NCBI GenBank assembly: GCA_964427585.1
Contig: CAYRVC010000001.1
Location: 34,220-98,219, forward strand
Source of the DNA: an uncultured Candidatus Saccharibacteria bacterium
GTDB taxonomy: Bacteria; Patescibacteriota; Minisyncoccia; Minisyncoccales; Staskawiczbacteraceae
Length of the DNA stretch: 64,000 nt
Direction of reading: 5' to 3'
A program made the position numbers and the translations under genes. Below, in pieces: positions 3,168 to 46,043 of this stretch; positions within the stretch are counted from its first letter, which is position 1, and every line of letters begins with the position of its first letter. Under the pieces are notes generated by a model. It saw nothing but the letters and a program-made list of their open reading frames with translations, did not search any database and was not told where the DNA came from.

Positions 3168-3731
3168 ATGACCAGCCTTAGAGAAAAATATAAAAAAGAA
3201 GCGGCGCCCCAGATGATGAAGGTTTTCGGCTATAAGAATGTTATGGCGGTTCCTTCCGTTAAAAAGGTTGTGATAAACAGCTGTTTTGGAAAAAACATCG
3301 CGGGCAAGTCGGCCGGGGAGAGGGAAAAGATACAGAATGCCATTGTGCATGACCTGTCTTTGATTTCCGGTCAAAGGCCGAAACTGGCAAAATCAAAAAA
3401 ATCAATTGCCGGGTTCAAATTGAGGGAAGGGCTGGAAATTGCCGCGGTGGCGACATTGAGAAAAACTAAAATGTGGGATTTTTTAGAAAGGCTTATTTAT
3501 CTGGCATTGCCAAGGTCTCACGATTTTAAAGGAATAGACCCAAAATCAATCGACAAAAGAGGAAACCTTAATTTAGGCTTTAAGGAGCATATTTCGTTTC
3601 CCGAAATTTTTGCGGAAAAGGAGAAAACAATTTTCGGGCTGGAAATAACAGTGGTGACAAACGCAAAGAGCAAAGAAGAAGGCTCAGAATTGTATAAATT
3701 ATTAGGATTTCCCATTAAAGATATCAAATAA
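3168..3731 (+). CDS. rplE: 50S ribosomal protein L5
   Basis: [37 protein letters not shown] aligns to L5 N-termini. In-frame ATGs at 3135, 3144 and 3159 are alternative starts. Confidence 0.92.
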
Positions 3732-6336: not shown

Positions 6337-7614
6337 ATGTGGCACGAAAAAATACTATTTCTTTTCAGAAACAAAGAATTAAGGAATAAAATTTTATTTA
6401 TAATTTTCCTTTTTGTTGTTTTCAGAATCGCCGCCAATATCCCCATTCCCGGAATCGGAACTGAAAATTTAAGGAAATTTTTTGCCGAAAATCAGGTTTT
6501 CGGCCTTTTAAATGTTTTTGCCGGCGGAGCTTTGAGCAATTTTTCAATAATTCTGCTGGGGCTCGGGCCTTATATCACAGCCACCATCATCTTGCAATTG
6601 CTTACCATGATTTTTCCGGCGCTGGAAAAAATGTACAAAGAAGAAGGCGAGGCCGGCCGCCATAAATTCAACCAATATTCAAGATTACTGACCATTCCCC
6701 TGGCTTTTTTTGAAGGATACGGAATGCTGACTGTTTTCCAAAGGCAAGGGATAATTTCCGGCCTTTCTCCAGAAATTTTATTGAGCTCCGTCATCACCAT
6801 TGCCGCGGGAGCTATGTTTTTGATGTGGCTGGGAGAAATTATTTCCGAGCAGGGCATGGGGAACGGCATTTCTCTTTTGATATTTGCGGGAATAGTGGCC
6901 AATCTTCCGATAAACATATTCCAGACATTCGTAAGCTGGGATCCTTCCAAAATCCCTTCTTATCTGCTGTTTTTTTTCCTGTCTTTGGTTATAATCGCCG
7001 GCGTTGTTTTAATTACGGAAGCCCGCAGGAACATACTTGTTTCCTACGCCAAAAGGGTGAGGGGGTCAAAGATGTACGGCGGGTTCTCGACATATCTGCC
7101 TTTGAATGTAAACCCGGCCGGAGTCATTCCTATTATCTTCGCCCTTTCAGTTCTTTTGTTTCCGGGGATGATTGCTAACTTTTTGGGAGGGGTTCCGGGG
7201 GCAGTGGGGAATGTCGCCAACTCCATGGGAAATTTTTTCAATAATATTTGGGTCAACGGCATTTTGTATTTTATTCTTGTGATTATGTTTACCTATTTTT
7301 ACACTGCCGTTACTTTTGACCCGAAAACCATAGCTGAAAATCTGCAAAAAATGGGCGGGTTTATTCCAGGCGTAAGGCCGGGCAGGCCCACGGCTGATTT
7401 TTTAAAGCATATTTTAAACAGGGTTTTGTTCACCGGCGCCATTTTTCTGGCCTTAATAGCCGTTCTTCCGTCTATTGTTGCCGGACTTACCGGGGTAACA
7501 GGCTTCACTTTTTTGATAGGAGGAACATCGCTTTTAATAGTTGTAAGCGTTGTGCTGGAAACAGTGCGGCAGATAAACGCCCAGCTCGAGATGAGGGAAT
7601 ACGACACTTTTTAA
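6337..7614 (+). CDS. secY: Preprotein translocase subunit SecY
   Basis: 425 aa, multi-TM; IPIPGI, GGALSNFSIILLGLGPYITATIILQLL, GISLLIFAGIV; operon position. Confidence 0.95.
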   Translation: MWHEKILFLFRNKELRNKILFIIFLFVVFRIAANIPIPGIGTENLRKFFAENQVFGLLNVFAGGALSNFSIILLGLGPYITATIILQLLTMIFPALEKMYKEEGEAGRHKFNQYSRLLTIPLAFFEGYGMLTVFQRQGIISGLSPEILLSSVITIAAGAMFLMWLGEIISEQGMGNGISLLIFAGIVANLPINIFQTFVSWDPSKIPSYLLFFFLSLVIIAGVVLITEARRNILVSYAKRVRGSKMYGGFSTYLPLNVNPAGVIPIIFALSVLLFPGMIANFLGGVPGAVGNVANSMGNFFNNIWVNGILYFILVIMFTYFYTAVTFDPKTIAENLQKMGGFIPGVRPGRPTADFLKHILNRVLFTGAIFLALIAVLPSIVAGLTGVTGFTFLIGGTSLLIVVSVVLETVRQINAQLEMREYDTF

Positions 7615-7660
7615 TCTGTTGATTAAAAAGTGAATTTTAAATTTTTAATTTTAAATTTTT

Positions 7661-8350
7661 ATGAAACAGGTTATAATTTTATTCGGGCCTCCGGGGGCGG
7701 GCAAAGGCACGCAGGCCGAGCTTCTGGCAGATAAACTGGGGTATTATCACTTTGAATCAAGCAAGGTTATCGAAGCCTGTTTTCAAAACGAACAGCAGGA
7801 AAAAGTTTTCAGCATAGAAGGAAACGATTACAAAGTAGGCGACGAAAAAAAAAGATGGGAGCAGGGCTTGCTCAACAGCCCTCCTTTTGTTGTTTTTTTG
7901 ATGGCTGAAAGGATAAAGGAATTGGCGGAGATGGGAAAATCAATTATTTTTTCCGGTTCCCCCAGAACGGTTTACGAGGCCGAAAGGGAAATTCCTCTTT
8001 TAAAAGAGCTTTACGGTCTGGAGAATATAAATTTTCTTTTTTTAGAAATTTCTCCTAAAACCACTATTTTTAGGAACTCTAACAGGAGGATATGCGAGCT
8101 TATCCGTCATTCTATTTTGTTTACTCCAGAAACGGAAAAATTAACCTTTTGTCCTTTAGACGGGTCAAAACTGGTAAGGAGAAAGGGTTTAGATGAACTG
8201 GCGACAATTAAAAAACGCTTGGAAATTTTCAAAGAGCAAACGTTTCCCGTTTTAGAGACAGTCAAAAGAGCGGAGATAGAAATTAAAAAAGTGAACGGCG
8301 AACAGTGGGTGGCGGATGTTTTTCAGGATGTTCTCGGAGCGCTTAAATAA
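7661..8350 (+). CDS. adk: Adenylate kinase
   Basis: P-loop ILFGPPGAGKGTQAELLA, followed by a lid-like segment. It follows secY. Confidence 0.85.
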   Translation: MKQVIILFGPPGAGKGTQAELLADKLGYYHFESSKVIEACFQNEQQEKVFSIEGNDYKVGDEKKRWEQGLLNSPPFVVFLMAERIKELAEMGKSIIFSGSPRTVYEAEREIPLLKELYGLENINFLFLEISPKTTIFRNSNRRICELIRHSILFTPETEKLTFCPLDGSKLVRRKGLDELATIKKRLEIFKEQTFPVLETVKRAEIEIKKVNGEQWVADVFQDVLGALK

Positions 8351-9529: not shown

Positions 9530-9567
9530 AAGTGAGGTTTTTTCACTCGAGTGAAAAAACCTCACTT
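9530..9567. repeat. 38-nt perfect palindrome, copy 1 of the TTTTTTCACTCGAGTGAAAAAA family
   Basis: AAGTGAGGTTTTTTCACTCGAGTGAAAAAACCTCACTT is its own reverse complement. Confidence 0.95.
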
Positions 9568-9616: not shown

Positions 9617-10159
9617 ATGAAAGACTCGGTGATAAAACAAATATTATTGCATTTATATGATTGTATAGATTATGGTTTCAGTTACAGGGTGAAAAAAGGT
9701 CTTTTTATTGATAGTTTATTTCCCGGCGGCTGGAAAAAATTTAGCAAAGAAGAAATAAAAGAAGGCATTAAATATTTAAAAACAACTAATTTTATTACAA
9801 GAAAAGAAGGGTATGATGGTTCGGTGATTATTTCATTAACCGAAAAAGGCAAACTTCGAGCGCTTAATATAAGATTCAAAAGATTAAATTATAAAAAAGA
9901 GCCTTGGGATAAAAAATGGCGAATGGTTGCATTTGATATTCCAAACACGCATAGAAAGGGAAGGGATGCTGTGAGGTATCGCTTGCGCACCGCAGGATTT
10001 TATGAATTGCAGGAAAGTATACTTATATATCCTTATGATTGCGAGAGTGAAATTAGAGATTTTATAACGCTGTTTAAACTCGAAAAATACGTCCGTTTTG
10101 CATTATTGGATTTTATTGATGGAGAGGATTATCTTGTAAAATTATTCAAGCTGGTTTAG
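9617..10159 (+). CDS. PaaX-like / Cas2-fold putative transcriptional regulator
   Basis: The N-terminal half is wHTH-like. WRMVAFDIPNTHRKGRDAVRYRLRTAGFYELQESILIYPYD matches the PaaX-type middle-domain pattern. The gene is visibly AT-rich. Confidence 0.55.
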   Translation: MKDSVIKQILLHLYDCIDYGFSYRVKKGLFIDSLFPGGWKKFSKEEIKEGIKYLKTTNFITRKEGYDGSVIISLTEKGKLRALNIRFKRLNYKKEPWDKKWRMVAFDIPNTHRKGRDAVRYRLRTAGFYELQESILIYPYDCESEIRDFITLFKLEKYVRFALLDFIDGEDYLVKLFKLV

Positions 10160-10193
10160 GTATGTTTTTTCACTCGAGTGAAAAAATATACCT
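10158..10193. repeat. 36-nt palindrome (1 mismatch), copy 2 of the TTTTTTCACTCGAGTGAAAAAA family
   Basis: AGGTATGTTTTTTCACTCGAGTGAAAAAATATACCT. It overlaps the TAG stop of the preceding gene. Confidence 0.95.
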
Positions 10194-10256: not shown

Positions 10257-11012
10257 ATGAAAAATTTGATTGCGGGGAATTGGAAGATGAATCCGGAAAC
10301 CGAAAAAGAAGCTAAGGCTCTTTTTTTAAAAATTAAAAAAGGAATAAAAAATATAAAGAATGCCGAGGTGGTTTTGTGTCCGCCGTTTTTGTATTTGCCC
10401 GTGTTGGCCAATATTCAGCCTGGCAAGATTTTTTTAGGTTCGCAGAATTGCTTCTGGGAAGAAAAAGGCGCTTTTACCGGCGAAATTTCAGCCTTAATGT
10501 TGAAGGATTTTAAGGTAAAGTACATTATTTTGGGGCATTCTGAGCGCCGGAAATATTTTAATGAAACAAACGAGCTAATTAATAAAAAAATAAAAAAAGC
10601 ATTGGATGAGGGCCTTAAAGTTATTTTTTGCGCAGGCGAGACGGCTGAGGAGAAAAGTAGCGGAAAAAAATTAGATGCTTTAGGCCGTCAGCTTAGGGAA
10701 GGGTTAAAAAATATTCCAAAAAACAAAATAAATGGCATAAGCATTGCCTATGAACCCGTCTGGTCGATTGGAACAGGGAATAATTGTTCCGTTGAAGAAA
10801 CGATGACTTCTGTTTTATCCATAAGAAAAATAATCGCGGATTTATACGGCAGGAAATCAGCTACCGGAATGAGGATTCTTTACGGCGGAAGCGTAAACAG
10901 CAAGAATGCAGGCCACTATATAAAGGAATCTAAGGCCAACGGCCTGTTGGCAGGAGGAGCTTCAACGAACGCGGAGGAGTTTATAAAAATTGTAAAATCT
11001 TCAGAACCTTGA
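10257..11012 (+). CDS. tpiA: Triosephosphate isomerase
   Basis: IAGNWKMN, ILGHSERR, AYEPVWSIGTG, YGGSV. Confidence 0.93.
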   Translation: MKNLIAGNWKMNPETEKEAKALFLKIKKGIKNIKNAEVVLCPPFLYLPVLANIQPGKIFLGSQNCFWEEKGAFTGEISALMLKDFKVKYIILGHSERRKYFNETNELINKKIKKALDEGLKVIFCAGETAEEKSSGKKLDALGRQLREGLKNIPKNKINGISIAYEPVWSIGTGNNCSVEETMTSVLSIRKIIADLYGRKSATGMRILYGGSVNSKNAGHYIKESKANGLLAGGASTNAEEFIKIVKSSEP

Positions 11013-11169
11013 GTTACGAAATGCCTTACGAATTATTTTATTTTGGATTGCGGGCGAGACTTTGCAAAAATTTTGAGGCATATACGGAGTATTCTGCCTC
11101 AAAATTTTTACAAAGGCGCAGCCCAAGCCAAAATATAAATAATTTAAGCGCATTTTGTAACTCAAGGTT
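11005..11169 (+). repeat. Family-A nested-hairpin element (MITE-like), copy 1, about 165 nt
   Basis: Near-identical to 44273-44434. Terminal inverted repeats are AACCTTGAGTTACGAAATGCC and their complement. The central hairpin is AAAATTTTGAGGCA/TGCCTCAAAATTTT. Confidence 0.9.
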
Positions 11170-11249
11170 CATAATAAAAAGTCGTTGGATGTATCTCAAA
11201 ATATATTCGCTGATTGACATAAGGGATATTTTTTAATAGCATAAGTAAT

Positions 11250-11789: not shown

Positions 11790-11962
11790 CCAATTTTATA
11801 AAAGTAAAAGTGGAATTTTTAATTTTAAATTTTTAAATAATTCTTAAATTTTTTAATTTTTAAACAACGCCGGAAACGGCGTTTTTAGTTGAACAGGGAA
11901 GAGTAAAAAATGGGTGGCTGGGCATTATTGCGTTGTAAAAATTTTTGGTATAAAATAGTTAA

Positions 11963-13837
11963 ATGACTTCAAAAGAATTACGCCAGAAATTTTTGGATTA
12001 TTTCGAAAAACACGGACACAAAATAGTGCCATCTTCTTCGCTTTTGCCGACTGACCAGAGCGTGCTTTTTTCGACTGCCGGAATGCAGCAGTTTAAGACG
12101 TATTACTTGGGGGAAAAGTCGCCTTACGGAAAAAATGTTGCTTCCTGCCAAAAGTGCATCAGAACTTCAGATATTGACGAAGTGGGCGATGAGCGACATC
12201 TAACATTTTTTGAAATGCTTGGTAATTTTTCTTTTGGCGGATATTTTAAAGAAGAAGCAATAAAATTGGCACATGATTTTATCGTTAGAGATTTGGGATT
12301 GGAAATTGATTATGTCACGGTTTTTAGCCCCGAAAAGGTTGCAGAAGGAGATTGGAGAAAGGGAGTGGAAGAAGACAAAAAATCGTTTGAGATTTGGAAA
12401 GAAATAGGTGTGCCGGAAGAAAAAATAAGAAAAGAAGGAATTGATAATTTTTGGGGGCCGACGGGCGAGGAAGGACCTTGCGGACCAACAACAGAAATTT
12501 ATGTGAATGGCATTGAAATTTGGAATATTGTTTTTAACGAATTTTTTTGTGATAAGAATAAAAGACTTAAAAAGTTAGGGCAGGAAGGAGTTGATACTGG
12601 CATGGGACTAGAAAGATTAGCAATGGTGATACAAAAAAAAGAAACAGTTTTTGAAACAGATCTATTTCAGCCTATAATTTCTAAAATTTTGTCTTTGACT
12701 GGAATAGTACACGATAGTAACAATATTCCGCTGTCTGTTTACCCACATGGTGCTATAGGGTCAAATTTAAGCCAAGAGGAATCTGTTATATCAGTGAGGG
12801 TAGCCGTTGACCATATTAAAGCAGCGACATTCTTAATCGCTGACGGCGTTGTGTCATCTAATAAGGGTAGAGGGTATATTTTAAGGCGTTTAATTCGAAG
12901 AATAATTACGCGTGGTAGGCGGATAGGAATTATGAAGATTGGGTCAGAAAATTTTCTATCAGAGTTAGCGGAAGTAGTTATAAAACAATATGGATCACAT
13001 TATCGAGAACTAATTAATAATCGTAGTAAAATTTTATCTGAACTTGATAAAGAAGAAACTAAATTTAGAGTAACCTTAACGGCCGGGTTGAGAAAAATGG
13101 AAGAGTATGTTGCGAAAAAAAATAATAATAGTCAATTTGCAGAAAGGGATAGAACTGATTTTAGATCTAAAAGTGACGATTTTATTAATTTAATTTCCGG
13201 CAAAGATGCATTCGATTTATATCAAACTTATGGATTTCCTCCAGAATTGTTAAATGAAGAATTGGCTCGATATGCAATGGGTTATCATAAAGAAGAATTT
13301 AAAGAAGAATTTAAAAAAGAACTAGAAAAACACCAAGAACTTTCGCGCACCGCTTCAGCCGGGATGTTCAAAGGAGGATTGGCGGATGAAAGCGAAAAAA
13401 CCGTAAAACTCCATACTGCGGCTCATTTGATGCTGGCCGGTTTAAGGAAGATTTTGGGGGAAACAGTGGTCCAGAAAGGAAGCAATATTACCAGAGAGAG
13501 ATTAAGGTTTGATTTTTCTTATGGTAAAAAAATGACAAAGGAGCAGATAGACGAGACAGAGAAGTTTGTAAATGATATAATAAAAAAAGACCTGCCTGTA
13601 TGGTTTGAAGAAATGCCATTTCAAAAAGCCAGAGAGATAAACGCCACAGGAGTTTTTGAATCGAAATACAGAGAAATGGTAAAGGTTTATTTCGCAGGCA
13701 AGGGAGAGGAAAATGTCAGCAAAGAAATTTGCGGAGGGCCCCACGTTGAGAGAACGGGAATTTTAGGGCATTTTAAAATACAAAAAGAAGAATCTTCTTC
13801 CGCCGGAATAAGAAGGATAAAGGCGGTGTTAGAATAA
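11963..13837 (+). CDS. alaS: Alanine--tRNA ligase, short form (ends after the editing domain)
   Basis: MTSKELRQKFLDYFEKHGH...SLLP...LFSTAGMQQFK...FEMLGNFSFGGYFK...GMGLERL; editing-domain motifs HTAAHLM and CGGPHV. Confidence 0.93.
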   Translation: MTSKELRQKFLDYFEKHGHKIVPSSSLLPTDQSVLFSTAGMQQFKTYYLGEKSPYGKNVASCQKCIRTSDIDEVGDERHLTFFEMLGNFSFGGYFKEEAIKLAHDFIVRDLGLEIDYVTVFSPEKVAEGDWRKGVEEDKKSFEIWKEIGVPEEKIRKEGIDNFWGPTGEEGPCGPTTEIYVNGIEIWNIVFNEFFCDKNKRLKKLGQEGVDTGMGLERLAMVIQKKETVFETDLFQPIISKILSLTGIVHDSNNIPLSVYPHGAIGSNLSQEESVISVRVAVDHIKAATFLIADGVVSSNKGRGYILRRLIRRIITRGRRIGIMKIGSENFLSELAEVVIKQYGSHYRELINNRSKILSELDKEETKFRVTLTAGLRKMEEYVAKKNNNSQFAERDRTDFRSKSDDFINLISGKDAFDLYQTYGFPPELLNEELARYAMGYHKEEFKEEFKKELEKHQELSRTASAGMFKGGLADESEKTVKLHTAAHLMLAGLRKILGETVVQKGSNITRERLRFDFSYGKKMTKEQIDETEKFVNDIIKKDLPVWFEEMPFQKAREINATGVFESKYREMVKVYFAGKGEENVSKEICGGPHVERTGILGHFKIQKEESSSAGIRRIKAVLE

Positions 13838-16596: not shown

Positions 16597-17226
16597 ATGA
16601 AAGACGATCAATGTAAAATTTGCAGGACATTCGGCCAGAAGCTCTTTTTGAAAGGAGAGCGTTGTTTGTCTCCAAAATGCGCCATTACCAGAAGGGCATA
16701 CTCTCCCAATGCTCAGAAAAAAAGAAAAAAAGGCGCGCCTTCCGGATATAAAAAATCGCTGGAACAAAAACAGGCTATTAAAAAATGGTATGGTCTTTCT
16801 GAAAAACAATTTAAGAAATATGTTAATGAGACATTGAAAAAAATAGGCAAGGTGGAAAATGTTTCAGAAGAGCTTGTAAAAAAGCTGGAAAAAAGGCTGG
16901 ATAATGTCATTTTTCGGCTGGGGCTTGCCAAATCCAGGCCGCAGGCCAGGCAAATGGTCAGCCACGGATATTTTTTGATAAACGGCAAACGGGTCAATAT
17001 TCCATCTTATTCGGTTAAAAAAGAAGACAAAGTTTCTTTGAAAGAATCGAAGAAGAAAAAAACAATTTTAAAAGACATATCAGCCGAATTGAAAAATAGG
17101 GAAGCTCCAGTGTGGCTTTTGCTGGACAGGGAAAAGCTGGAAGCAAAGGTGGTGGCTGACCCAACTATGGAAGAAGCCAATCCGCCCGCTGAAATCTCTT
17201 TAGTTTTTGAATTTTATTCACGTTAA
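16597..17226 (+). CDS. rpsD: 30S ribosomal protein S4
   Basis: CKICRTFGQKLFLKGERC.SPKC...RLDNVIFRLGLAKSRPQARQMVSHGYFLINGKRVNIPSY. Confidence 0.94.
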   Translation: MKDDQCKICRTFGQKLFLKGERCLSPKCAITRRAYSPNAQKKRKKGAPSGYKKSLEQKQAIKKWYGLSEKQFKKYVNETLKKIGKVENVSEELVKKLEKRLDNVIFRLGLAKSRPQARQMVSHGYFLINGKRVNIPSYSVKKEDKVSLKESKKKKTILKDISAELKNREAPVWLLLDREKLEAKVVADPTMEEANPPAEISLVFEFYSR

Positions 17227-17371
17227 AATACGAATTTTATAATTTTTAATTTTATAATTTTGCAAATAATTTTTTAATAACAGAATTTTTAAACACGACA
17301 GCGTTGTTTAGAAATTTAAAAATTAGAGAATTACTTAAAAATTAAAAATTGGAAATTAAAAATTTAGCAAT
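17227..17371. repeat. AT-only imperfect long inverted repeat in the rpsD-rpoA spacer
   Basis: Arms built from AATTTTTAATTTTATAATTTT-type units flank a central AAACACGACAGCGTTGTTT. Confidence 0.5.
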
Positions 17372-19712: not shown

Positions 19713-20993
19713 ATGAAAACGAATCATAAGATAATAATTGGAGACTCCAGGAATATGGCGGAATTAGAAAATAATTCTGTACATTTAGTTGTTACTTCAC
19801 CACCATATTGGCAATTGAAAGATTATGGGACAAAAGATCAGATCGGCTTTAATGATAGTTATGAGAATTATATCAATAATCTGAATTTAGTATGGAAAGA
19901 ATGCTTCAGGGTTTTAAATGATGGGTGTCGTCTATGTATAAATATCGGTGATCAATTTGCGCGGTCTGTTTATTATGGAAGATATAAAATCATTCCAATA
20001 AGGATAGAAATAATAAAGTTTTGTGAAAGTATAGGATTTGATTATATGGGTTCTATTATTTGGCAAAAAGCAACAACAATGAACACAACTGGTGGAGCGA
20101 CCATAATGGGTAGTTTTCCCTATCCAAGAAATGGGATTGTAAAATTAGATTATGAGTTTATATTGATTTTTAAAAAAATAGGAGATGCTCCAAAAGTTTC
20201 CAGAGAAGTTAAAGAAAAATCTAAAATGTCTAAAGAGGAATGGAATCAATATTTTACAGGACATTGGAATTTTAATGGAGTTAAACAAATTGAACATTTA
20301 GCGATGTTCCCAGAAGAATTGCCAAAACGGTTGATAAAAATGTTCAGCTTCGTGGGAGACACTGTTTTAGACCCGTTTTTAGGAAGTGGTACAACTACTC
20401 TCGCTGCAAAAAATTTAGGCAGAAATTCAGCAGGATATGAAATTAACAAGGAATTTTTACCGCATATGAAGGAAAAAATAGAAGTCTCGAATAATGATGC
20501 TAATTTTGATTTTATCAAACAAGAAAAAATCCTTACTGATTATGAAAAAGAAATATTAGATTTACCATACATTTTTAAGGACGCGGTAAAATTTGAAAGA
20601 AAAATTGACCCTAAGAAATTACAATTTGGTTCGAAAATAGACTCAACAAGGGAAGAAGATATTCAGTCATACTATGTAAAAGGAATTATGAGTCCTGAAA
20701 AATTATTGTTAAATAATGATTTAGTAGTAAAATTAATTGGAGTTAAGACAAAAAAAGAGAAAATAGACGAAGCTATTAAATTTTTGCAGAAAAAATTAAA
20801 AAATCAGCAGGTTTTCATTAGATTTGATACGCTGAAATATGACGGGAAAAATAATTTACTTTGCTATTTATATTTGAAAAATAAAACCTTCATAAACGCC
20901 CATTTAATAAAAAATGACCTTGTTGATGTTGACCAAGAATTTGATTATAAATATAAACTTAAATTTTTAAATTTAACTAAAAATTATGCCTAA
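19713..20993 (+). CDS. Beta-class N4-cytosine/N6-adenine DNA methyltransferase with a C-terminal degenerate SNase-like domain
   Basis: Motif IV VVTSPPYW comes before motif I DPFLGSGTT, which is the beta order. The C-terminus has an SNase-like pattern, VKLIGVKTKK...LLCYLYLKNKTFINAHLIKNDLVDV. Confidence 0.85.
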   Translation: MKTNHKIIIGDSRNMAELENNSVHLVVTSPPYWQLKDYGTKDQIGFNDSYENYINNLNLVWKECFRVLNDGCRLCINIGDQFARSVYYGRYKIIPIRIEIIKFCESIGFDYMGSIIWQKATTMNTTGGATIMGSFPYPRNGIVKLDYEFILIFKKIGDAPKVSREVKEKSKMSKEEWNQYFTGHWNFNGVKQIEHLAMFPEELPKRLIKMFSFVGDTVLDPFLGSGTTTLAAKNLGRNSAGYEINKEFLPHMKEKIEVSNNDANFDFIKQEKILTDYEKEILDLPYIFKDAVKFERKIDPKKLQFGSKIDSTREEDIQSYYVKGIMSPEKLLLNNDLVVKLIGVKTKKEKIDEAIKFLQKKLKNQQVFIRFDTLKYDGKNNLLCYLYLKNKTFINAHLIKNDLVDVDQEFDYKYKLKFLNLTKNYA

Positions 20994-21618
20994 TGAATGG
21001 ATTTTAAACCAAGCTAATATGAGGTGGGGATTAACCAAAAAGAACAAGGTTGGTCCCGTCGCGGAATTAATAAGAAAGTGCTCTCCCAAAACACTCGATG
21101 AGTGGGAAAAATTTTATTTAGAAAGAGCTTATCCAAAGGAGCATCTTGAACAGCTTGGGAAAATTTTATTTATTAAAGTTACAGATGTTTGTAAAGCCGA
21201 AATAGAAGATGTCACAGAAGCAGATTGCATAGATTTTATCTATAATTTAGTAATAAATAGGACTTTTGATGGTTATCAATCAGAGATACAAACCATTTAC
21301 GGACAACTTGAGGAAAAGCTCGGAGTCAAAATTGAAGCCGCGCCAGATGCGTGGGATAGGGGATACAATGTAGATTATTTTATTAAGATAAACGACAAAT
21401 ATATTGGTCTCCAGATAAAGCCGGCTGGATATGAATATATTACTCAAATTATAAACGAACGAGATCAGCAGAAAAAGACTCATGAAAAATTTACTGAAAA
21501 ATATGGAGGCAGAGTTTTTTATGTAATCTCTATAACTGATGGGAAAAATAAAATAATTCATAATCTCGAGGTAATTGAGGAAATAAATAAGGAAATCGCA
21601 AAATTATCTGAAAAATAA
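20986..21618 (+). CDS. Putative type II restriction endonuclease (partner of the MTase)
   Basis: Overlaps the MTase by 8 nt. 210 aa with a PD-(D/E)xK-like segment, NVDYFIKINDKYIGLQIKP. Same AT-rich composition as the MTase. Confidence 0.55.
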   Translation: MPNEWILNQANMRWGLTKKNKVGPVAELIRKCSPKTLDEWEKFYLERAYPKEHLEQLGKILFIKVTDVCKAEIEDVTEADCIDFIYNLVINRTFDGYQSEIQTIYGQLEEKLGVKIEAAPDAWDRGYNVDYFIKINDKYIGLQIKPAGYEYITQIINERDQQKKTHEKFTEKYGGRVFYVISITDGKNKIIHNLEVIEEINKEIAKLSEK

Positions 21619-25014: not shown

Positions 25015-25040
25015 GGTTTTTTCACTCGAGTGAAAAAACC
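25015..25040. repeat. 26-nt perfect palindrome, copy 3 of the TTTTTTCACTCGAGTGAAAAAA family
   Basis: GGTTTTTTCACTCGAGTGAAAAAACC is identical to the inner 26 nt of copy 1. Confidence 0.95.
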
Positions 25041-31023: not shown

Positions 31024-32277
31024 ATGCTTCAATCAAAATTATTCTATAAAACAGCGAAAGAAAAGTCGGCCGATACCGAATCTATTTCACATGAATTGCT
31101 GACCCGCGCCGGGTTTGTTGACCAGCTTATGGCCGGGGTTTACACATTTTTGCCGCTGGGTTTTATGGTTTTGAAAAAAATTGAAAATATAATAAGAAAA
31201 AATATGGAAAACGCGGGCGGACAGGAAGTTTTAATGCCGGTTTTACAGCCGAAAGAAAACTGGCAGAAAACAGGCAGGTGGGAAACCCTGGACATACTTT
31301 TTAAAATAAAAGCCAGCGGCGAAAAAGAATATGCCTTAGGGCCTACCCACGAAGAAGTTATTTCTCCTCTGGCAAAGAAAATTATTTTTTCATATAAGGA
31401 CCTGCCTTTTTATCTTTTCCAGATACAGACAAAATTCAGAAACGAGCCAAGGGCGAAATCCGGCATTCTAAGGACGCGGGAATTTTTAATGAAAGACCTT
31501 TATTCTTTTCACGCAGACCAGGGAGATTTGGATAAATACTATGAAAAGATGCTAAAAGTTTATTTCAATATTTTTAAAGAATGCGGCATTTACAAAGGAG
31601 GAAAAAATCCGCATACTTACAGAACGCTGGCTTCCGGAGGAAGTTTTTCAAAATATTCAGACGAGTTTCAAACAATTACTGAAGCTGGAGAAGACATAAT
31701 TTATATCTGTAAAAAATGCCAGACTGCCGTCAATAAGGAAATTATAAGCGAAAATAAAAATTGCCCCAATTGCAAATCCGCAGATTTTGAAGAAAAAAAG
31801 GCGATTGAGGTGGGGAATATTTTTAAACTGGGAACAAAATATTCTTTGCCCTTTGATTTAAAATTCAGGGATAAGGACGGATCGGAAAAACCGGTTTTAA
31901 TGGGCTGTTACGGAATAGGGATTTCAAGGCTGATGGGCGCCGTTGCGGAGGCAAGTCACGACAACAAAGGAATAATCTGGCCTAAAAATATTGCTCCATT
32001 TTCAGCGCATTTGATTCTCGTGGAAAACAGCCGAAAGGTAAAACAGGCGGCTGATAAGATATACGACAATTTTCAAAAACAAAAAATTGAAATATTATAT
32101 GACGACAGGCAGGGAAAGTCGGTTGGAGAAAAATTTGCGGTTTCGGACTTGATTGGAATTCCGCATAGGATAGTGGTGTCTGAAAAAACACTGGCAAAAA
32201 ATTCGGTCGAAGTAAAGGAAAGGACAAAAAACCAGGCAAAATTAGTTAAGATAAAAGAATTAATAAAATTATTCTAA
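31024..32277 (+). CDS. proS: Proline--tRNA ligase, short form without an INS editing domain
   Basis: HELLTRAGFVDQLMAGVYTFLPLG, FRNEPRAKSGILRTREFLMKDLYSFH, GCYGIGISRL. A CxxC..CxxC insert lies between motifs 2 and 3. Confidence 0.9.
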   Translation: MLQSKLFYKTAKEKSADTESISHELLTRAGFVDQLMAGVYTFLPLGFMVLKKIENIIRKNMENAGGQEVLMPVLQPKENWQKTGRWETLDILFKIKASGEKEYALGPTHEEVISPLAKKIIFSYKDLPFYLFQIQTKFRNEPRAKSGILRTREFLMKDLYSFHADQGDLDKYYEKMLKVYFNIFKECGIYKGGKNPHTYRTLASGGSFSKYSDEFQTITEAGEDIIYICKKCQTAVNKEIISENKNCPNCKSADFEEKKAIEVGNIFKLGTKYSLPFDLKFRDKDGSEKPVLMGCYGIGISRLMGAVAEASHDNKGIIWPKNIAPFSAHLILVENSRKVKQAADKIYDNFQKQKIEILYDDRQGKSVGEKFAVSDLIGIPHRIVVSEKTLAKNSVEVKERTKNQAKLVKIKELIKLF

Positions 32278-32284
32278 TTAACCT

Positions 32285-32412
32285 AATTATTCTAATTGTT
32301 CTAATCAATGTCTAATTTCTAATGACTAATTCAAAAACCCGTTTCAGACATTAGACATTTTATCATTTAGATTTGATTAGAATAATTAGAGTAATTAGAA
32401 TAATTAGACATT
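32285..32412 (+). repeat. Family-B long-hairpin element (MITE-like), copy 1
   Basis: Highly similar to 38525-38661. The left arm is made of TTCTAAT-type units and the right arm of ATTAGA-type units, which are mutually complementary. Confidence 0.9.
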
Positions 32413-32423
32413 AGTGAAAGGTT

Positions 32424-33485
32424 ATGTTTAAAAAACTATTTTCATTCTTATCTATTGACATGGCGATTGATTTGGGAACCGCTAATTCTTTGGTATATGT
32501 TAAAGACAGAGGCATAATTATAAATGAGCCGTCGGTGGTGGCAGTTAACAACAAAACAGGCCAGGTGCTGGCTATTGGCGAGGAAGCCAAAAAAATGGTG
32601 GGCCGCACGCCAGCATATATCACGGCCACCAGGCCCCTTGTGAACGGGGTAATTTCGGACTTTGAGGTAACCGAGCAGATGCTCAAATACTTTATTGAAA
32701 AAGCGGCTTCTTCAGGCAAAAAAGCGCTGGGGGTGGGTTCTTTGCCGAGGGTAATTATCGGTATTCCCTGCGGAGTCACGGAAGTTGAAAGAAGGGCGGT
32801 AAGGAACGCCGCCAAGTCAGCTGGAGCAAAAACTGTTTTTTTGATTGAAGAGCCCTTGGCTTCGGCCATTGGGGCCAAGCTTCCCATTCAGGAGGCTGGC
32901 GGAAATTTCATTGTTGATATAGGCGGAGGGACAACCGAGGTGGCCGTAATATCCTTGGGGGGAATAGTGGCTTTCAAAAGCCTGAGGGTTGCCGGCGACA
33001 AATTGAACGATGATATCGTGCAATTCGCCCAAAAAGAGTATAAGCTTTTAATAGGAGAAAGAACCGCGGAATTCATTAAAATAAGCATTGGTTCGGCCAT
33101 ACCATTGAAAGAAAAAAAGGAGATGCCGATGCGCGGCAGAAACCTGATTACCGGCCTGCCAGAAGAGGTGGTTGTTTTCAACGACGATGTCCAAAGGGCT
33201 TTGGACAGGTCGGTAAAACAGATTGTTTTGGCCATTAAAACGACAATTGAGGAAACTCCGCCGGAATTGCTGGCCGATGTGATGACGAACGGCATTTATC
33301 TGGCAGGGGGAGGCTCTCTTTTAAGGGGGCTTGATCTTCTTATCGCCAGGGAAACCAAAATGCCCTGCAAAATTATTGACGATCCTTTGACATCGGTTGT
33401 AAGGGGGGCCGGCATAGCCTTGGAAAACATAGAAAAGCTTTCGGAAGTTATGTCAAAAGACGAAGAGGAAGAAGCATTTACGTAA
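32424..33485 (+). CDS. mreB: Actin-like protein MreB (paralogue 2)
   Basis: MAIDLGTANSLVYV...EPSVVAV...RPLVNGVISDF...IVDIGGGTTEVAVISLGGIV...GIYLAGGGSLL. Confidence 0.9.
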   Translation: MFKKLFSFLSIDMAIDLGTANSLVYVKDRGIIINEPSVVAVNNKTGQVLAIGEEAKKMVGRTPAYITATRPLVNGVISDFEVTEQMLKYFIEKAASSGKKALGVGSLPRVIIGIPCGVTEVERRAVRNAAKSAGAKTVFLIEEPLASAIGAKLPIQEAGGNFIVDIGGGTTEVAVISLGGIVAFKSLRVAGDKLNDDIVQFAQKEYKLLIGERTAEFIKISIGSAIPLKEKKEMPMRGRNLITGLPEEVVVFNDDVQRALDRSVKQIVLAIKTTIEETPPELLADVMTNGIYLAGGGSLLRGLDLLIARETKMPCKIIDDPLTSVVRGAGIALENIEKLSEVMSKDEEEEAFT

Positions 33486-37836: not shown

Positions 37837-38516
37837 TGATAAAATTCGATAAAGTAACAAAAGTTTACCCCCCCGACAGCCTTGTGCTGGAAGATATTTC
37901 TTTTGAAATAAAAGAAGGGGAGTTTGTATCTATAGTGGGAAAATCCGGAGCCGGAAAAACAACCTTAACCCGCCTGCTTTTAGGGCTGGAAGAGCCGACC
38001 TCCGGCCGTGTGTATTTTGAAGGCGTAAATGTCCATGAAGCCAGCCCGCCCGAACTCCAGGCTATCAGGAGAAAAATAGGGGTGATCTACCAGGATTATA
38101 AGCTCCTTCCGGCAAAAACAGTTTATGAAAATGTCGCCTATATAATGGAAGTTGAAGGCAAGGAAAGCAGTGATATTTCAGGATATGTCAATAACATTTT
38201 AGACATAATCGGATTAAGCGGAAAAATGAATAATTTTCCAAAAGAGCTTTCCGGCGGGGAACAGCAGAGGCTGGCCATTGCCAGGGCGCTGGTTAAAAAT
38301 CCCTTGGTGATTGTGGCCGACGAGCCTACCGGCAACCTTGATCCTTACAACACATATGAAACCATTTCCCTTTTAGAGAAAATGAACAAAGCCGGAAAAA
38401 CAGTAATGCTTCTGACCCATGACAGGGAAGTGGTGAATAAGCTTGGCAAAAGGGTCATTACTTTAGATAGCGGAAGAATCGTAAGGGACGAAGATGAAGG
38501 AAGATTTATAATATAA
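37836..38516 (+). CDS. ftsE: Cell division ATP-binding protein FtsE
   Basis: Walker [13 protein letters not shown] signature LSGGEQQR, Walker [18 protein letters not shown] overlap with prfB. Confidence 0.9.
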
Positions 38517-38524
38517 ATTATTCG

Positions 38525-38661
38525 AATTATTCTAATTGTTCTAATTATTCTAATAAATGCCTAATTTCTAATGCCTAATTCAAAAATGGTTTTTAGACAT
38601 TAGACATTTTGTCATTGGGATTTGATTAGAATAATTAAAATAATTAGGTTAATTAGACATT
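38525..38661 (+). repeat. Family-B long-hairpin element, copy 2
   Basis: Aligns to 32285-32412 with one extra TATTCTAAT unit and a few substitutions. Confidence 0.9.
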
Positions 38662-44157: not shown

Positions 44158-44191
44158 AAAATTTAAGGTTTAAAATTTGAACTGAAAGCAG

Positions 44192-44223
44192 AACCGCCGG
44201 GCACCGCTTGGCGGTTTTTTTAT
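44192..44223 (+). terminator. Rho-independent terminator
   Basis: AACCGCC-loop-GGCGGTT followed by TTTTTTT. Confidence 0.75.
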
Positions 44224-44272: not shown

Positions 44273-44434
44273 AACCTTGAGTTACGAAATGCCTTACGAA
44301 TTATTTTATTTTGGCTTGCGGGCGAGCCGAAGTAAAAATTTTGAGGCATATACGGAGTATTCTGCCTCAAAATTTTTACAAAAGCGTAGCCCAAGCCAAA
44401 ATTAAAGAATTTAAGGCATTTCGTAATTCAAGGT
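44273..44434 (+). repeat. Family-A nested-hairpin element, copy 2, about 162 nt
   Basis: Same orientation and near-identical to 11005-11169. It ends 8 nt before the ftsZ ATG. Confidence 0.9.
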
Positions 44435-44441
44435 AGTATAA

Positions 44442-46043
44442 ATGAAAAAAATAAAAAGAAAGGCTAAAATAAAGCAGATAAGGAAAAAAAGGCTTAAAAT
44501 TCCTAAAAGGAAAAAGCGCTTTTTCGTTAAAAAAACTAAAAAAGTGAAAAGCATAAATAGAAAAAGGCCGGCAAAAAGGAAAATGAAAACTGTCCGCCTC
44601 CGAAAAGCCGTTGCCGAAAACGCAGGAGAGTTTTTTTCGCCAAAGTCTCTTTTTAAGGCAAAAATAAAAGTCATTGGAATAGGCGGGGGAGGGGCGTCGA
44701 TTGTTTCTGAAATAGGCAGGTCTTTAGACAGGGCGACTTTTGTGATAGCCGACACGGATATCAGGGCTTTGAGGAAAAGGCAGGGAATAAAATATTTTTG
44801 GTTCGGCGAGGAGCTGGCCCACGGCTTAGGCACGGGCGTTAATCCGGGTTTGGCAAAGGAGGCCGCTCTGAAAGAAAAAGAAAAAATATCCGAATTTTTC
44901 AAAGGCCAGGACATTGTTGTTTTTATAGCTTCCCTGGGGGGAGGAGTGGGGTCGGGGGCAACGGAAATTTTTGCAAGGGCCGCTGAAGAATCAGGCGTTA
45001 TCAGCTTTGGGATATTTACCTTGCCCTTTAAGTTTGAAGGCGACAATAAAGCTAAGATAGCCAGGAACGCCCTGAAAAAAATAAGGGAATCGCTTAATGT
45101 TTCCGTTGCCATACCCAATGAAAAAATATTCAAAGTGATAGACAACAGCACCCCGATAGTGGAGGCATTTTCGGTTGTCAATAAAAATCTGGCTGATTCT
45201 TTGGAAAGCCTTATAGACCTTATTTATAATCCGGGAGTCATAAACATTGATTTTGCCGATGTGAGGACGATTTTAAGCGGCAGGGGGAATTTCGCCTTTT
45301 TGAATTCAGCTGAAGCTTCGGGCAAAAACAGGTCAGACGACCTCATTAAAAAAATAGCCGTAAACCCGCTGTACCAGAACAACAATTTTATTGCTGAAAA
45401 AATTCTTTTTAACATTGCGGGGGATTATTCGTTGAGCATGTCGGAAGTGGAAAAGATAAGCAGTTCTGTTTCAGGGCTGAATCCTGCGGCCAAAATCATT
45501 TTCGGAGTATCAAAAAATCCAAAACTCAAAAAGAAAATAAAAGCCACCCTGTTGATGGCAGGTCCCTCAAAAACGGATGCTTCGCCTGTTGAAAAGAAAG
45601 GCATAAAGGCTTTGAAAGAAGATAAGATATCGGCGGAAAAAGAAAAAGAAAAGAAGGCGTTGAAAGAATCTTTTAAACAAAAAAAGCCGAAAAAAGCTGA
45701 AAGCAAAGCCAAAAAACAAAAAAACAAAAGCAAGAAAGCGGTGGGCCAGGCGCAAGATAAAGAAGGCAAAGAAAACGCGCCGTTTATGATTCCGCCCTCC
45801 GGAGAGAGTTTTCCTAAAATTCCGGCGGAGGCTCCGGGAATATTCAGGCCAGAGAGGCTGGACTCCGTTTTGAAGCTTGAAGAAGATGGCGGAAGCGAAA
45901 AAAAACTTGCAGTAAAAAAAACAATAAGAAGGAACGCCCTGGAAATAAAAAAAGCGGAAGCGCTGGAGGAAGATAAAAGATTTTTGCAGGAGAAAGAATG
46001 GGAAATCCCCGCTTTTTTAAGAAAAATTAAATTCAAGCCGTAA
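44442..46043 (+). CDS. ftsZ: Cell division protein FtsZ (divergent; poly-basic N-terminal extension, long K/E linker)
   Basis: IKVIGIGGGG, GLGTGVNP, GGGVGSG, PFKFEG, C-terminal peptide IPAFLRK. An alternative start is at 44583. Confidence 0.88.
   Translation: MKKIKRKAKIKQIRKKRLKIPKRKKRFFVKKTKKVKSINRKRPAKRKMKTVRLRKAVAENAGEFFSPKSLFKAKIKVIGIGGGGASIVSEIGRSLDRATFVIADTDIRALRKRQGIKYFWFGEELAHGLGTGVNPGLAKEAALKEKEKISEFFKGQDIVVFIASLGGGVGSGATEIFARAAEESGVISFGIFTLPFKFEGDNKAKIARNALKKIRESLNVSVAIPNEKIFKVIDNSTPIVEAFSVVNKNLADSLESLIDLIYNPGVINIDFADVRTILSGRGNFAFLNSAEASGKNRSDDLIKKIAVNPLYQNNNFIAEKILFNIAGDYSLSMSEVEKISSSVSGLNPAAKIIFGVSKNPKLKKKIKATLLMAGPSKTDASPVEKKGIKALKEDKISAEKEKEKKALKESFKQKKPKKAESKAKKQKNKSKKAVGQAQDKEGKENAPFMIPPSGESFPKIPAEAPGIFRPERLDSVLKLEEDGGSEKKLAVKKTIRRNALEIKKAEALEEDKRFLQEKEWEIPAFLRKIKFKP

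Follow-up and report, generated by a model that had tools for sequence, protein, structure and literature searches.

The small hairpin repeats closest to the element described here are the Correia elements of Neisseria, which duplicate TA only, and the ERIC elements of enterobacteria, whose effect on mRNA stability depends on their orientation. In Patescibacteria, whose genomes are very small, mobile DNA is held to be rare. For MITEs (miniature transposable elements with inverted repeats) in general, AT-rich targets, decaying direct repeats, and stable stem-loop transcripts have been published (PMC10969869), and two sources ascribe to Correia elements the creation of promoters at their ends and cutting or protection by RNase III (PMC2649163; PMC10969869). 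We found no description of MITEs in Patescibacteria or the candidate phyla radiation (CPR) in the literature searched, and a review from 2024 on prokaryotic MITEs is silent on both Patescibacteria and candidate phyla. Herein, we analyzed a stretch of 64 kb (the window; GC content 39.5%) from contig CAYRVC010000001.1 of an uncultured patescibacterium, in which a hairpin element of about 160 nt occurs twice, beside tpiA and ftsZ. The element most probably represents (probability about 0.85) a dispersed, non-autonomous MITE family with 7-bp target duplications that is moved in trans and whose hairpin is maintained.

The element proper extends from CCTTGA to TCAAGG. Copy 1 (11007–11167, 161 nt), which was placed from its alignment and fold and from its polarity in nhmmer, has tpiA on one side and a PF04308 gene on the other, and copy 2 (44275–44433, 159 nt) lies upstream of ftsZ; both are on the + strand, sense to the neighboring genes. 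They are 91–92% identical over ~162 nt, in agreement with a preliminary description of this DNA that had reported two near-identical copies in the same orientation. The boundaries drawn there were 2 nt too wide, the outer AA and TT being part of the flanking target duplication. A third copy was not found in the window with blastn-short, nhmmer, or mismatch-tolerant pattern scans, and the 24-nt terminus had no match in 100 shuffles. In copy 1, the left terminal inverted repeat CCTTGAGTTACGAAATGCCTTA (11007–11028) pairs with the right one, TAAGCGCATTTTGTAACTCAAGG (11145–11167). The left repeat is the most conserved block of the family, and its columns are invariant or nearly so in 23 copies. The central hairpin of copy 1 (11066–11109), consisting of AAAAATTTTGAGGCA, a 14-nt loop, and TGCCTCAAAATTTTT, is identical to that of copy 2 (44334–44377), and its core, AAAATTTTGAGGCA and TGCCTCAAAATTTT separated by 14 nt, is perfect in both copies (11067–11108 and 44335–44376). 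Each copy was predicted to fold as a near-continuous rod, with −78.2 kcal/mol for copy 1 and −82.8 kcal/mol for copy 2, compared with about −31 ± 4 kcal/mol for dinucleotide shuffles (z = −13.4 and −12.6, respectively). Folding also bore out the three-tier rod proposed earlier, as both copies showed outer inverted repeats, a middle stem, and a central hairpin. Logan short-read contigs stop 30 nt into copy 1, within its right end, or at the center of the copy 2 hairpin, which is the behavior expected from a repeated palindrome.

The family extends well beyond the window. Searches of genomes and metagenomes yielded ~30 further members (numbered with L below) at unrelated loci, from another metagenome-assembled genome (MAG) and from groundwater and sediment metagenomes, so that the two copies seen at first are not the only ones. 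An exact 19-mer scan of species-representative genomes revealed the MAG JBDRST01, with one complete copy and one copy at a contig end; 9 of the 11 matches of the scan were discarded as chance 19–21-mers in unrelated phyla. When the translated element was searched against 5.8 billion proteins, the one match was a spurious 87-aa product. Spurious open reading frame (ORF) calls were not useful for a census, and this search was dropped for that purpose, but the spurious ORF led to a 707-nt Rifle contig (L011) with two copies of a 203-nt relative. Metagenome contigs of JGI/ENA were scanned with a degenerate probe, an alignment of translated left arms, and 32 loci were recovered, their sources being Hainich H43 groundwater and several groundwater and sediment samples of JGI; nhmmer found exactly one copy per metagenome locus of ~6 kb. 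A terminus-pattern scan of viral contigs returned 19–23-nt chance matches only, and no blastn match to the element was found in plasmid and phage collections.

Members of the family are 159–166 nt long, or 203–205 nt with secondary inserts, and their median pairwise identity is 82%. The closest pairs are copies apparently from the same genome (96.9–99.4% identical); for L032/L036 and L025/L028, copies 98.8–99.4% identical stand on contigs of one sample with matching coverage. The termini of the family are CCTTGAGTTACGAAATG, inverted at the two ends, and in every complete copy CCTTGAGTTACGAAATGCCTT pairs with its complement at the opposite end, giving inverted repeats of ~22 nt. The element is non-coding, the only ORFs being read-throughs of 42–75 aa on both strands of the palindrome. 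Its sites are AT-rich, mostly intergenic, and unrelated, and no copy interrupts an ORF. When the 139 ORFs located up to 3 kb to either side of 25 copies were compared with one another in an all-vs-all blastp, no neighbor gene recurred; the only recurrent cluster consisted of ORFs overlapping the element itself. The PF04308 “RNaseH-like” gene by copy 1 was considered as a transposase relative and dropped, as it never recurs beside other copies.

Other short repeats accompany some members. In the Rifle contig L011, the repeat TTTTTTCGTCATTGCGAGGAGACCGCAGTCGACGAAGCAATCTCGCCCCTGATT (1–54 and 449–502) directly abuts the left end of both element copies, and a duplicated piece of the element terminus (421–448) precedes it. 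The copies of L011 and L044 carry extra inserts of ~40–45 nt within their arms. Other mini-elements appear to be nested in the hairpin element.

All copies were set out together with their flanks; target duplications and strand stability were counted over 26 copies, start-codon context over 25 loci, and covariation in an alignment (A4) of 23 distinct copies. Outside CCTTGA...TCAAGG the flanking bases vary, and they vary as direct repeats. Copy 1 is preceded by TTCAGAA (11000–11006) and followed by TTCATAA (11168–11174), which match at six of seven positions. Exact 7-mer duplications flank L024 (TATAATA), L028 (TTATTAA), L031 (ATAATAT), L036 (TTATTGA), L042 (TTATAAA), and L044 (TAATATA), and exact 6-mers flank L026 and L033. 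Altogether, the 7-bp flanks match at six or seven positions in 7 of 26 copies (six exact, one 6/7), whereas cross-paired left and right flanks did so in 21 of 650 combinations (3.2%), and not one of 20,000 permutations gave as many matches as observed (p < 5e-5). The duplicated targets are rich in A and T, and many of them look like a −10 box or contain TAA (TATAATA, TAATATA, TTATAAA, TTATTAA, TTCAGAA).

The relationships among copies point in the same direction. The closest relative of a copy is usually another copy of the same genome, and near-identical copies occupy different loci within one population. L027 and L031 carry identical elements of 161 nt, and L024 differs by 1 nt, whereas the flanks of all three are unrelated. 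Elements with 0–1 nt differences at three unrelated loci are hard to explain other than by recent transposition. In size (for MITEs, less than about 800 bp), lack of coding capacity, inverted repeats, target duplication, and dispersal to non-homologous sites, the family agrees with MITEs, and its sequences indicate that it is probably a MITE family that was recently mobile. The preliminary description had proposed a non-autonomous MITE-like family, which the dispersed copies, the 7-bp duplications, the nearly identical copies, and the covariation described below all support. It had also stated that no transposase is nearby, and none was found among the window genes or within ±3 kb of the family copies. 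No extra termini that could bound a longer autonomous element were found within ±3 kb of any copy. We infer that mobilization occurs in trans, by a DDE-type transposase that would make 7-bp staggered cuts.

The insertion of copy 1 has left a trace in tpiA (TIM, PF00121; ORF 10257–11012), the end of which the copy overlaps. The stop codon TGA (11010–11012, + strand) is given by the element terminus CCTTGA, and the codon CCT (11007–11009) adds one Pro. TpiA in the window ends in ...KIVKSSEP*, whereas close homologs end in ...KIIKSAE*, ...KIVKSAG*, and similar sequences, one residue shorter. The last two codons and the TGA of tpiA had been attributed to copy 1; this is right for the TGA and for the Pro codon and wrong for the second codon, because GAA, the last native codon of tpiA, belongs to the duplicated target 7-mer and not to the element. 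The order around copy 1 is TTCAGAA, the element, TTCATAA, and then TAAAAAG. The end of tpiA before insertion would most simply be reconstructed as ...TCT TCA GAA TAA, that is, ...KSSE-TAA, which the C-termini of the homologs fit, and the predicted empty site should read ...TCTTCAGAATAAAAAG.... Copy 1 would accordingly have entered TTCAGAA just 5′ of the TAA of tpiA, so that TpiA gained one Pro and came to stop at the TGA of the element. The displaced original TAA now lies at 11175–11177. An ORF that reads into the terminus and stops at the TGA of CCTTGA was found at three loci, namely tpiA of the window, L040, and L041. The PF04308 gene starts 82 nt after copy 1. The closest TpiA homologs come from sources named “Patescibacteria group bacterium” and “Candidatus Staskawiczbacteria.”

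For copy 2, a hairpin followed by a T-run (44190–44222, + strand), resembling an intrinsic terminator of the upstream phosphoribosyltransferase gene, lies 52 nt before the element. The ATG of ftsZ (44442–46043, + strand) follows 8 nt past its right end, an arrangement typical of the family. Copy 2 sits between this terminator-like hairpin and ftsZ.

Paired-site covariation, which had been suggested as a check, is strong throughout the hairpin. The RNAalifold consensus of A4 contains 50 pairs, and 96.9% of its cells are standard pairs. Both sides changed in 20 of the 50 pairs, compared with 7.4 ± 1.4 in column shuffles (0 of 500 reached 20) and with 1–6 pairs when the partners were slid by 1–3 columns. 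L038 carries compensated block swaps (CATTGA/TCAATG and GACCTGG/CCAAGGT), the inner segments of L042 and L047 are different yet paired, and the hairpin tip of other members has a GA/AG internal loop or a different loop. L027:3002–3162 and L033:3002–3162 are the same insertion in two strains or samples, the 1-kb flanks having 0 and 3 mismatches, and element positions 66–97, the central 32 nt forming the hairpin tip, are exactly reverse-complemented between them. In copy 1, CTTTG stands where the family has CGAAG, a 3-nt block change through which the arm is now the perfect complement of the other arm. The flip and the block change show that arm-to-arm processes at the DNA level probably contribute to the upkeep of the hairpin, and covariation alone is therefore no proof of an RNA function. 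Template switching or gene conversion between the arms may maintain the hairpin in part, and selection on the + strand fold may do so as well.

The element has a definable polarity, since one strand always scored 2–3 times the other in nhmmer. By prediction, 23 of 26 copies have the more stable RNA on the + strand, with a mean difference of 8.5 kcal/mol, and this strand carries more G-U pairs; this predicted bias is suggestive only, as the copies are related by descent. The signal from gene context is stronger. At 12 independent loci of 25 (13 with L048), a substantial same-strand ORF starts with an ATG 6–22 nt past the right end (copy 2 of the window, L023, L025, L027/L033, L030, L031, L038, L039, L042, L044, L047, and L049), and the reverse arrangement occurs at two, L028 and L051 (two-sided binomial p about 0.01). 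The downstream N-termini look genuine, such as MKKILIADD of a response regulator and MPLIEVENL of an ABC ATPase. Antisense copies and some sense copies are farther from starts, lie past terminators (L032 and L036), or overlap stop codons.

Two neighbors of the element are themselves structured RNAs. A SAM riboswitch (L045:3170–3273, 57.8 bits) begins 3 nt after the right end of the element, and in L036 a gap of 13 nt separates the element from the 3′ end of the 5S rRNA gene (3177–3285) that closes an rRNA operon.

The right arms of both window copies contain an outward-facing promoter-like match, TTTACA-16-CAAAAT, at 11107–11134 in copy 1 and 44375–44402 in copy 2 (both + strand), each a consensus match only. 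A −35-like TTGAAG is found in most of the family, in the right arm only. The terminal AAGG/CAAGG was considered as a Shine–Dalgarno site and rejected as the main explanation: 58 of 66 window ORFs lack a motif of this kind between −18 and −4, and, as CAAGG is present at both ends of the element, the idea cannot explain the orientation bias. The upstream regions of the window are extremely AT-rich, and many ORFs have a TATAAT-like box a short distance 5′ of the ATG; in several genes, such as those at 11963, 24150, 46941, and 54496, a TATAAT or TGnTATAAT box ends 6–8 nt before the ATG. To judge from these sequences, leaderless mRNAs or mRNAs with a very short leader may be widespread in the window.

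A sequence of events can be proposed for the orientation bias. In compact genomes, the element would land in AT-rich 7-mers of the −10 or TAA type, near start or stop codons, and copies directly 5′ of starts would persist chiefly when they are oriented so that the gene is still expressed. The right arm could drive this expression with an outward promoter, or a native promoter upstream could read through the element and give the mRNA a 5′ hairpin of 160 nt. For Correia elements, both kinds of behavior are on record (PMC2649163; PMC10969869). On the basis of the locus counts, we tentatively suggest that copies survive preferentially when the + strand is co-oriented with the gene and the right end lies 6–22 nt upstream of its start, serving as a 5′ leader or promoter, although the odds are rather against it. 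It is more doubtful still that the element is a portable 5′-leader or promoter cassette for genomes that are largely free of Shine–Dalgarno sites and whose genes often begin shortly past a −10 box, and that it inserts in −10-like 7-mers and has a + strand fold under RNA-level selection. As such a cassette, a sense copy would rebuild an outward promoter from its right arm or shield the mRNA with a 160-nt hairpin at its 5′ end. If this were true, transposition would rewire how core genes, ftsZ among them, are expressed in regulator-poor CPR bacteria.

Several observations weigh against a dispersed MITE family moved in trans, or against the functions proposed for it. The window and the 3 kb on either side of each copy yielded neither a transposase nor an autonomous element with the same termini. 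An empty site was not found either: exact-protein look-ups with tpiA, the PF04308 gene, ftsZ, and the phosphoribosyltransferase gene led to filled sites, broken contigs, or nothing, and the nearest tpiA homologs available for such a comparison are only 68% identical. In about half of the copies, the flanks share nothing beyond TA...TA; one of them is copy 2, whose flanking 7-mers GAATAAA and TAGTATA match at four of seven positions. The missing duplications could be the result of decay, which direct repeats around MITEs undergo with age (PMC10969869), or of a more complicated insertion history. Selection on structure can be mimicked by homogenization of the arms in the DNA itself, and copies of the same genome share descent, so that the covariation and the + strand stability counts are not independent. 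The promoter-like matches are weak (9 of 12 positions), and, with 58 of 66 window genes having no Shine–Dalgarno motif, such a role of the AAGG terminus is unlikely.

The best surviving alternative, though an improbable one, is that the family is in the first place a structured RNA (a 5′ leader acting in cis or a gene for a small RNA), that its copies are maintained for an RNA function, and that its mobility is incidental or ancient. The strong covariation along the whole rod would fit such an RNA, as would the more stable + fold in 23 of 26 copies with its favored G-U pairs, the orientation bias through which downstream genes have the + strand in their 5′ region, and the conservation of asymmetric internal loops. 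However, those loops are replaced by perfect pairs in the window copies, and a copy can survive a flip of its hairpin tip. The downstream genes are unrelated, and some copies stand after stop codons, after terminators, in antisense, or beside the 5S rRNA gene. At gathering thresholds, Rfam identified four tRNAs in the window and no match to the element, and a permissive search gave generic miRNA-hairpin matches of about 33 bits against gathering thresholds of 100–200 (best MIR8007, 32.8 bits compared with 195). Target duplications and copies differing by 0–1 nt at unrelated loci show transposition. As a stand-alone explanation, the structured RNA family that the preliminary description had offered therefore fails, having neither an Rfam family nor a constant gene context. 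Given the strand asymmetry and the orientation bias, RNA-level selection could still act on top of the mobility of a MITE.

Mobility by a hairpin-dependent single-strand system, with the element as an IS200/IS605-derived palindrome-associated element or a REP/BIME unit moved by RAYT, is very improbable. The entire element is a hairpin with strand polarity, and many copies have no clear duplication, all of which such a system would accommodate. Transposition by Y1 (HUH) enzymes of the IS200/IS605 type leaves no target duplications, however, and here they are exact over 7 bp in six copies and near-exact in several more. The left flanks are AT-rich only, with no conserved target motif of 4–5 nt, the element is ~5 times the length of a REP unit, and no tnpA or RAYT-like gene was found at any locus. 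Finally, it is scarcely credible that the window pair is a local or segmental duplication or an assembly artifact, because although the two copies share 64 kb and no further copy lies in the ~9 kb of the same genome added by look-ups of the edge genes, they are 33 kb apart with unrelated flanks, copy 1 is also present in GCA_016181665.1, Logan contigs from several runs end inside copies 1 and 2, and the ~30 relatives elsewhere already refute it.

The surroundings of the two copies are those of a core genome. The window is gene-dense, with nearly all genes on one strand, and its genes are housekeeping ones (ribosomal protein operons, rpoA, alaS, mreB, ftsZ, ftsEX, and glycolysis). The sole other set is one restriction–modification pair amid the core genes, in which an N6/N4 DNA methylase gene is followed by a gene for an MjaI-family restriction endonuclease (19713–21618). 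The same DNA, copy 1 included, occurs in the independent assembly MAG GCA_016181665.1. Its contig JACOYW010000042.1 is elsewhere 99.97–100% identical and lacks 43 bases inside a PaaX-like ORF (10032–10074), which is accordingly called at 159 aa instead of 180 aa; the difference is due to strain variation or an assembly error.

The window contains further repeats. A second, unrelated hairpin family is represented by two copies (32266–32412 and 38515–38661) that are 86% identical and built from TTCTAATT/AATTAGAA units around a central loop. The first separates an aminoacyl-tRNA synthetase gene from mreB (ATG near 32424–32460), and the second separates ftsE from ftsX; like the copies of the element described above, they are located just 5′ of gene starts. 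A perfect 22-bp palindrome, TTTTTTCACTCGAGTGAAAAAA, occurs three times (9538–9559, 10165–10186, and 25017–25038). Two of these flank a gene with a PaaX_M domain (9617–10159), and the first extends to a palindrome of 38 bp; it could be an operator or a bidirectional terminator. Low-complexity repeats consisting of A and T only (AATTTTTAATTTTAAATTTTTA and similar) are found in intergenic regions at 7612–7661, 11793–11866, and 17219–17295, and two of them are near contig breaks of GCA_016181665.1 (about 8035–8337 and 17362).

A recently active MITE with no transposase in sight raises the question of whether its mobilizer is seated on an episome, in a phage, or in the host. The element alters the 3′ end of tpiA and fills the region between a terminator and ftsZ, which bears on annotation and on expression signals. 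Short-read contigs break within it, which matters for assembly, and the family alignment can be used as a search model to mask or catalogue such repeats. The bias toward sense copies upstream of genes raises the question of co-option as a promoter or leader.

Among the described systems, Correia elements (CREE/NEMIS) share the most with the patescibacterial element. They too are non-coding, with ~100–160 bp and inverted repeats of ~25 bp, their transcripts fold as a long hairpin, and they are scattered in AT-rich intergenic DNA, for the most part a short way upstream of genes. They are reported to undergo inversion (PMC10969869), and the hairpin family shows inversion of its tip. There is no apparent sequence relationship, and the hosts are Neisseria and Patescibacteria, respectively; the two were set apart by host and duplication length. 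Clean copies of the patescibacterial element duplicate 7 bp and not TA alone. Promoter activity, IHF binding, and RNase III processing are features of Correia elements, whereas the patescibacterial element is known from its sequence alone.

The ERIC/IRU elements of Enterobacteria and Yersinia are likewise imperfect palindromes, of ~127 bp, transcribed within mRNAs, and their orientation logic matches the orientation bias reported here. Their hosts and sequences are unrelated to those of the new family, and they show little evidence of recent transposition, unlike the patescibacterial copies that differ by 0–1 nt. Rickettsia palindromic elements resemble it as palindromic mini-elements of reduced genomes that can enter coding sequences, but they lie in frame within ORFs and are translated, whereas the patescibacterial element is read only at its terminal CCT-TGA, at three gene 3′ ends. 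With generic IS-derived MITEs (such as MITEAba12, RUP, and Nezha), it shares small size, inverted repeats, target duplications, and non-autonomy, together with AT-rich targets and sigma-70-like promoter motifs (PMC10969869; PMC6382973). It differs from them in pairing over its full length, with compensatory upkeep that goes beyond the inverted repeats. The element thus works like those of the Correia/ERIC type and belongs to neither, nor is it of the IS200/IS605 type, the REP type, or a known Rfam family; it is a family without earlier description that belongs to a well-known kind of element, the MITE.

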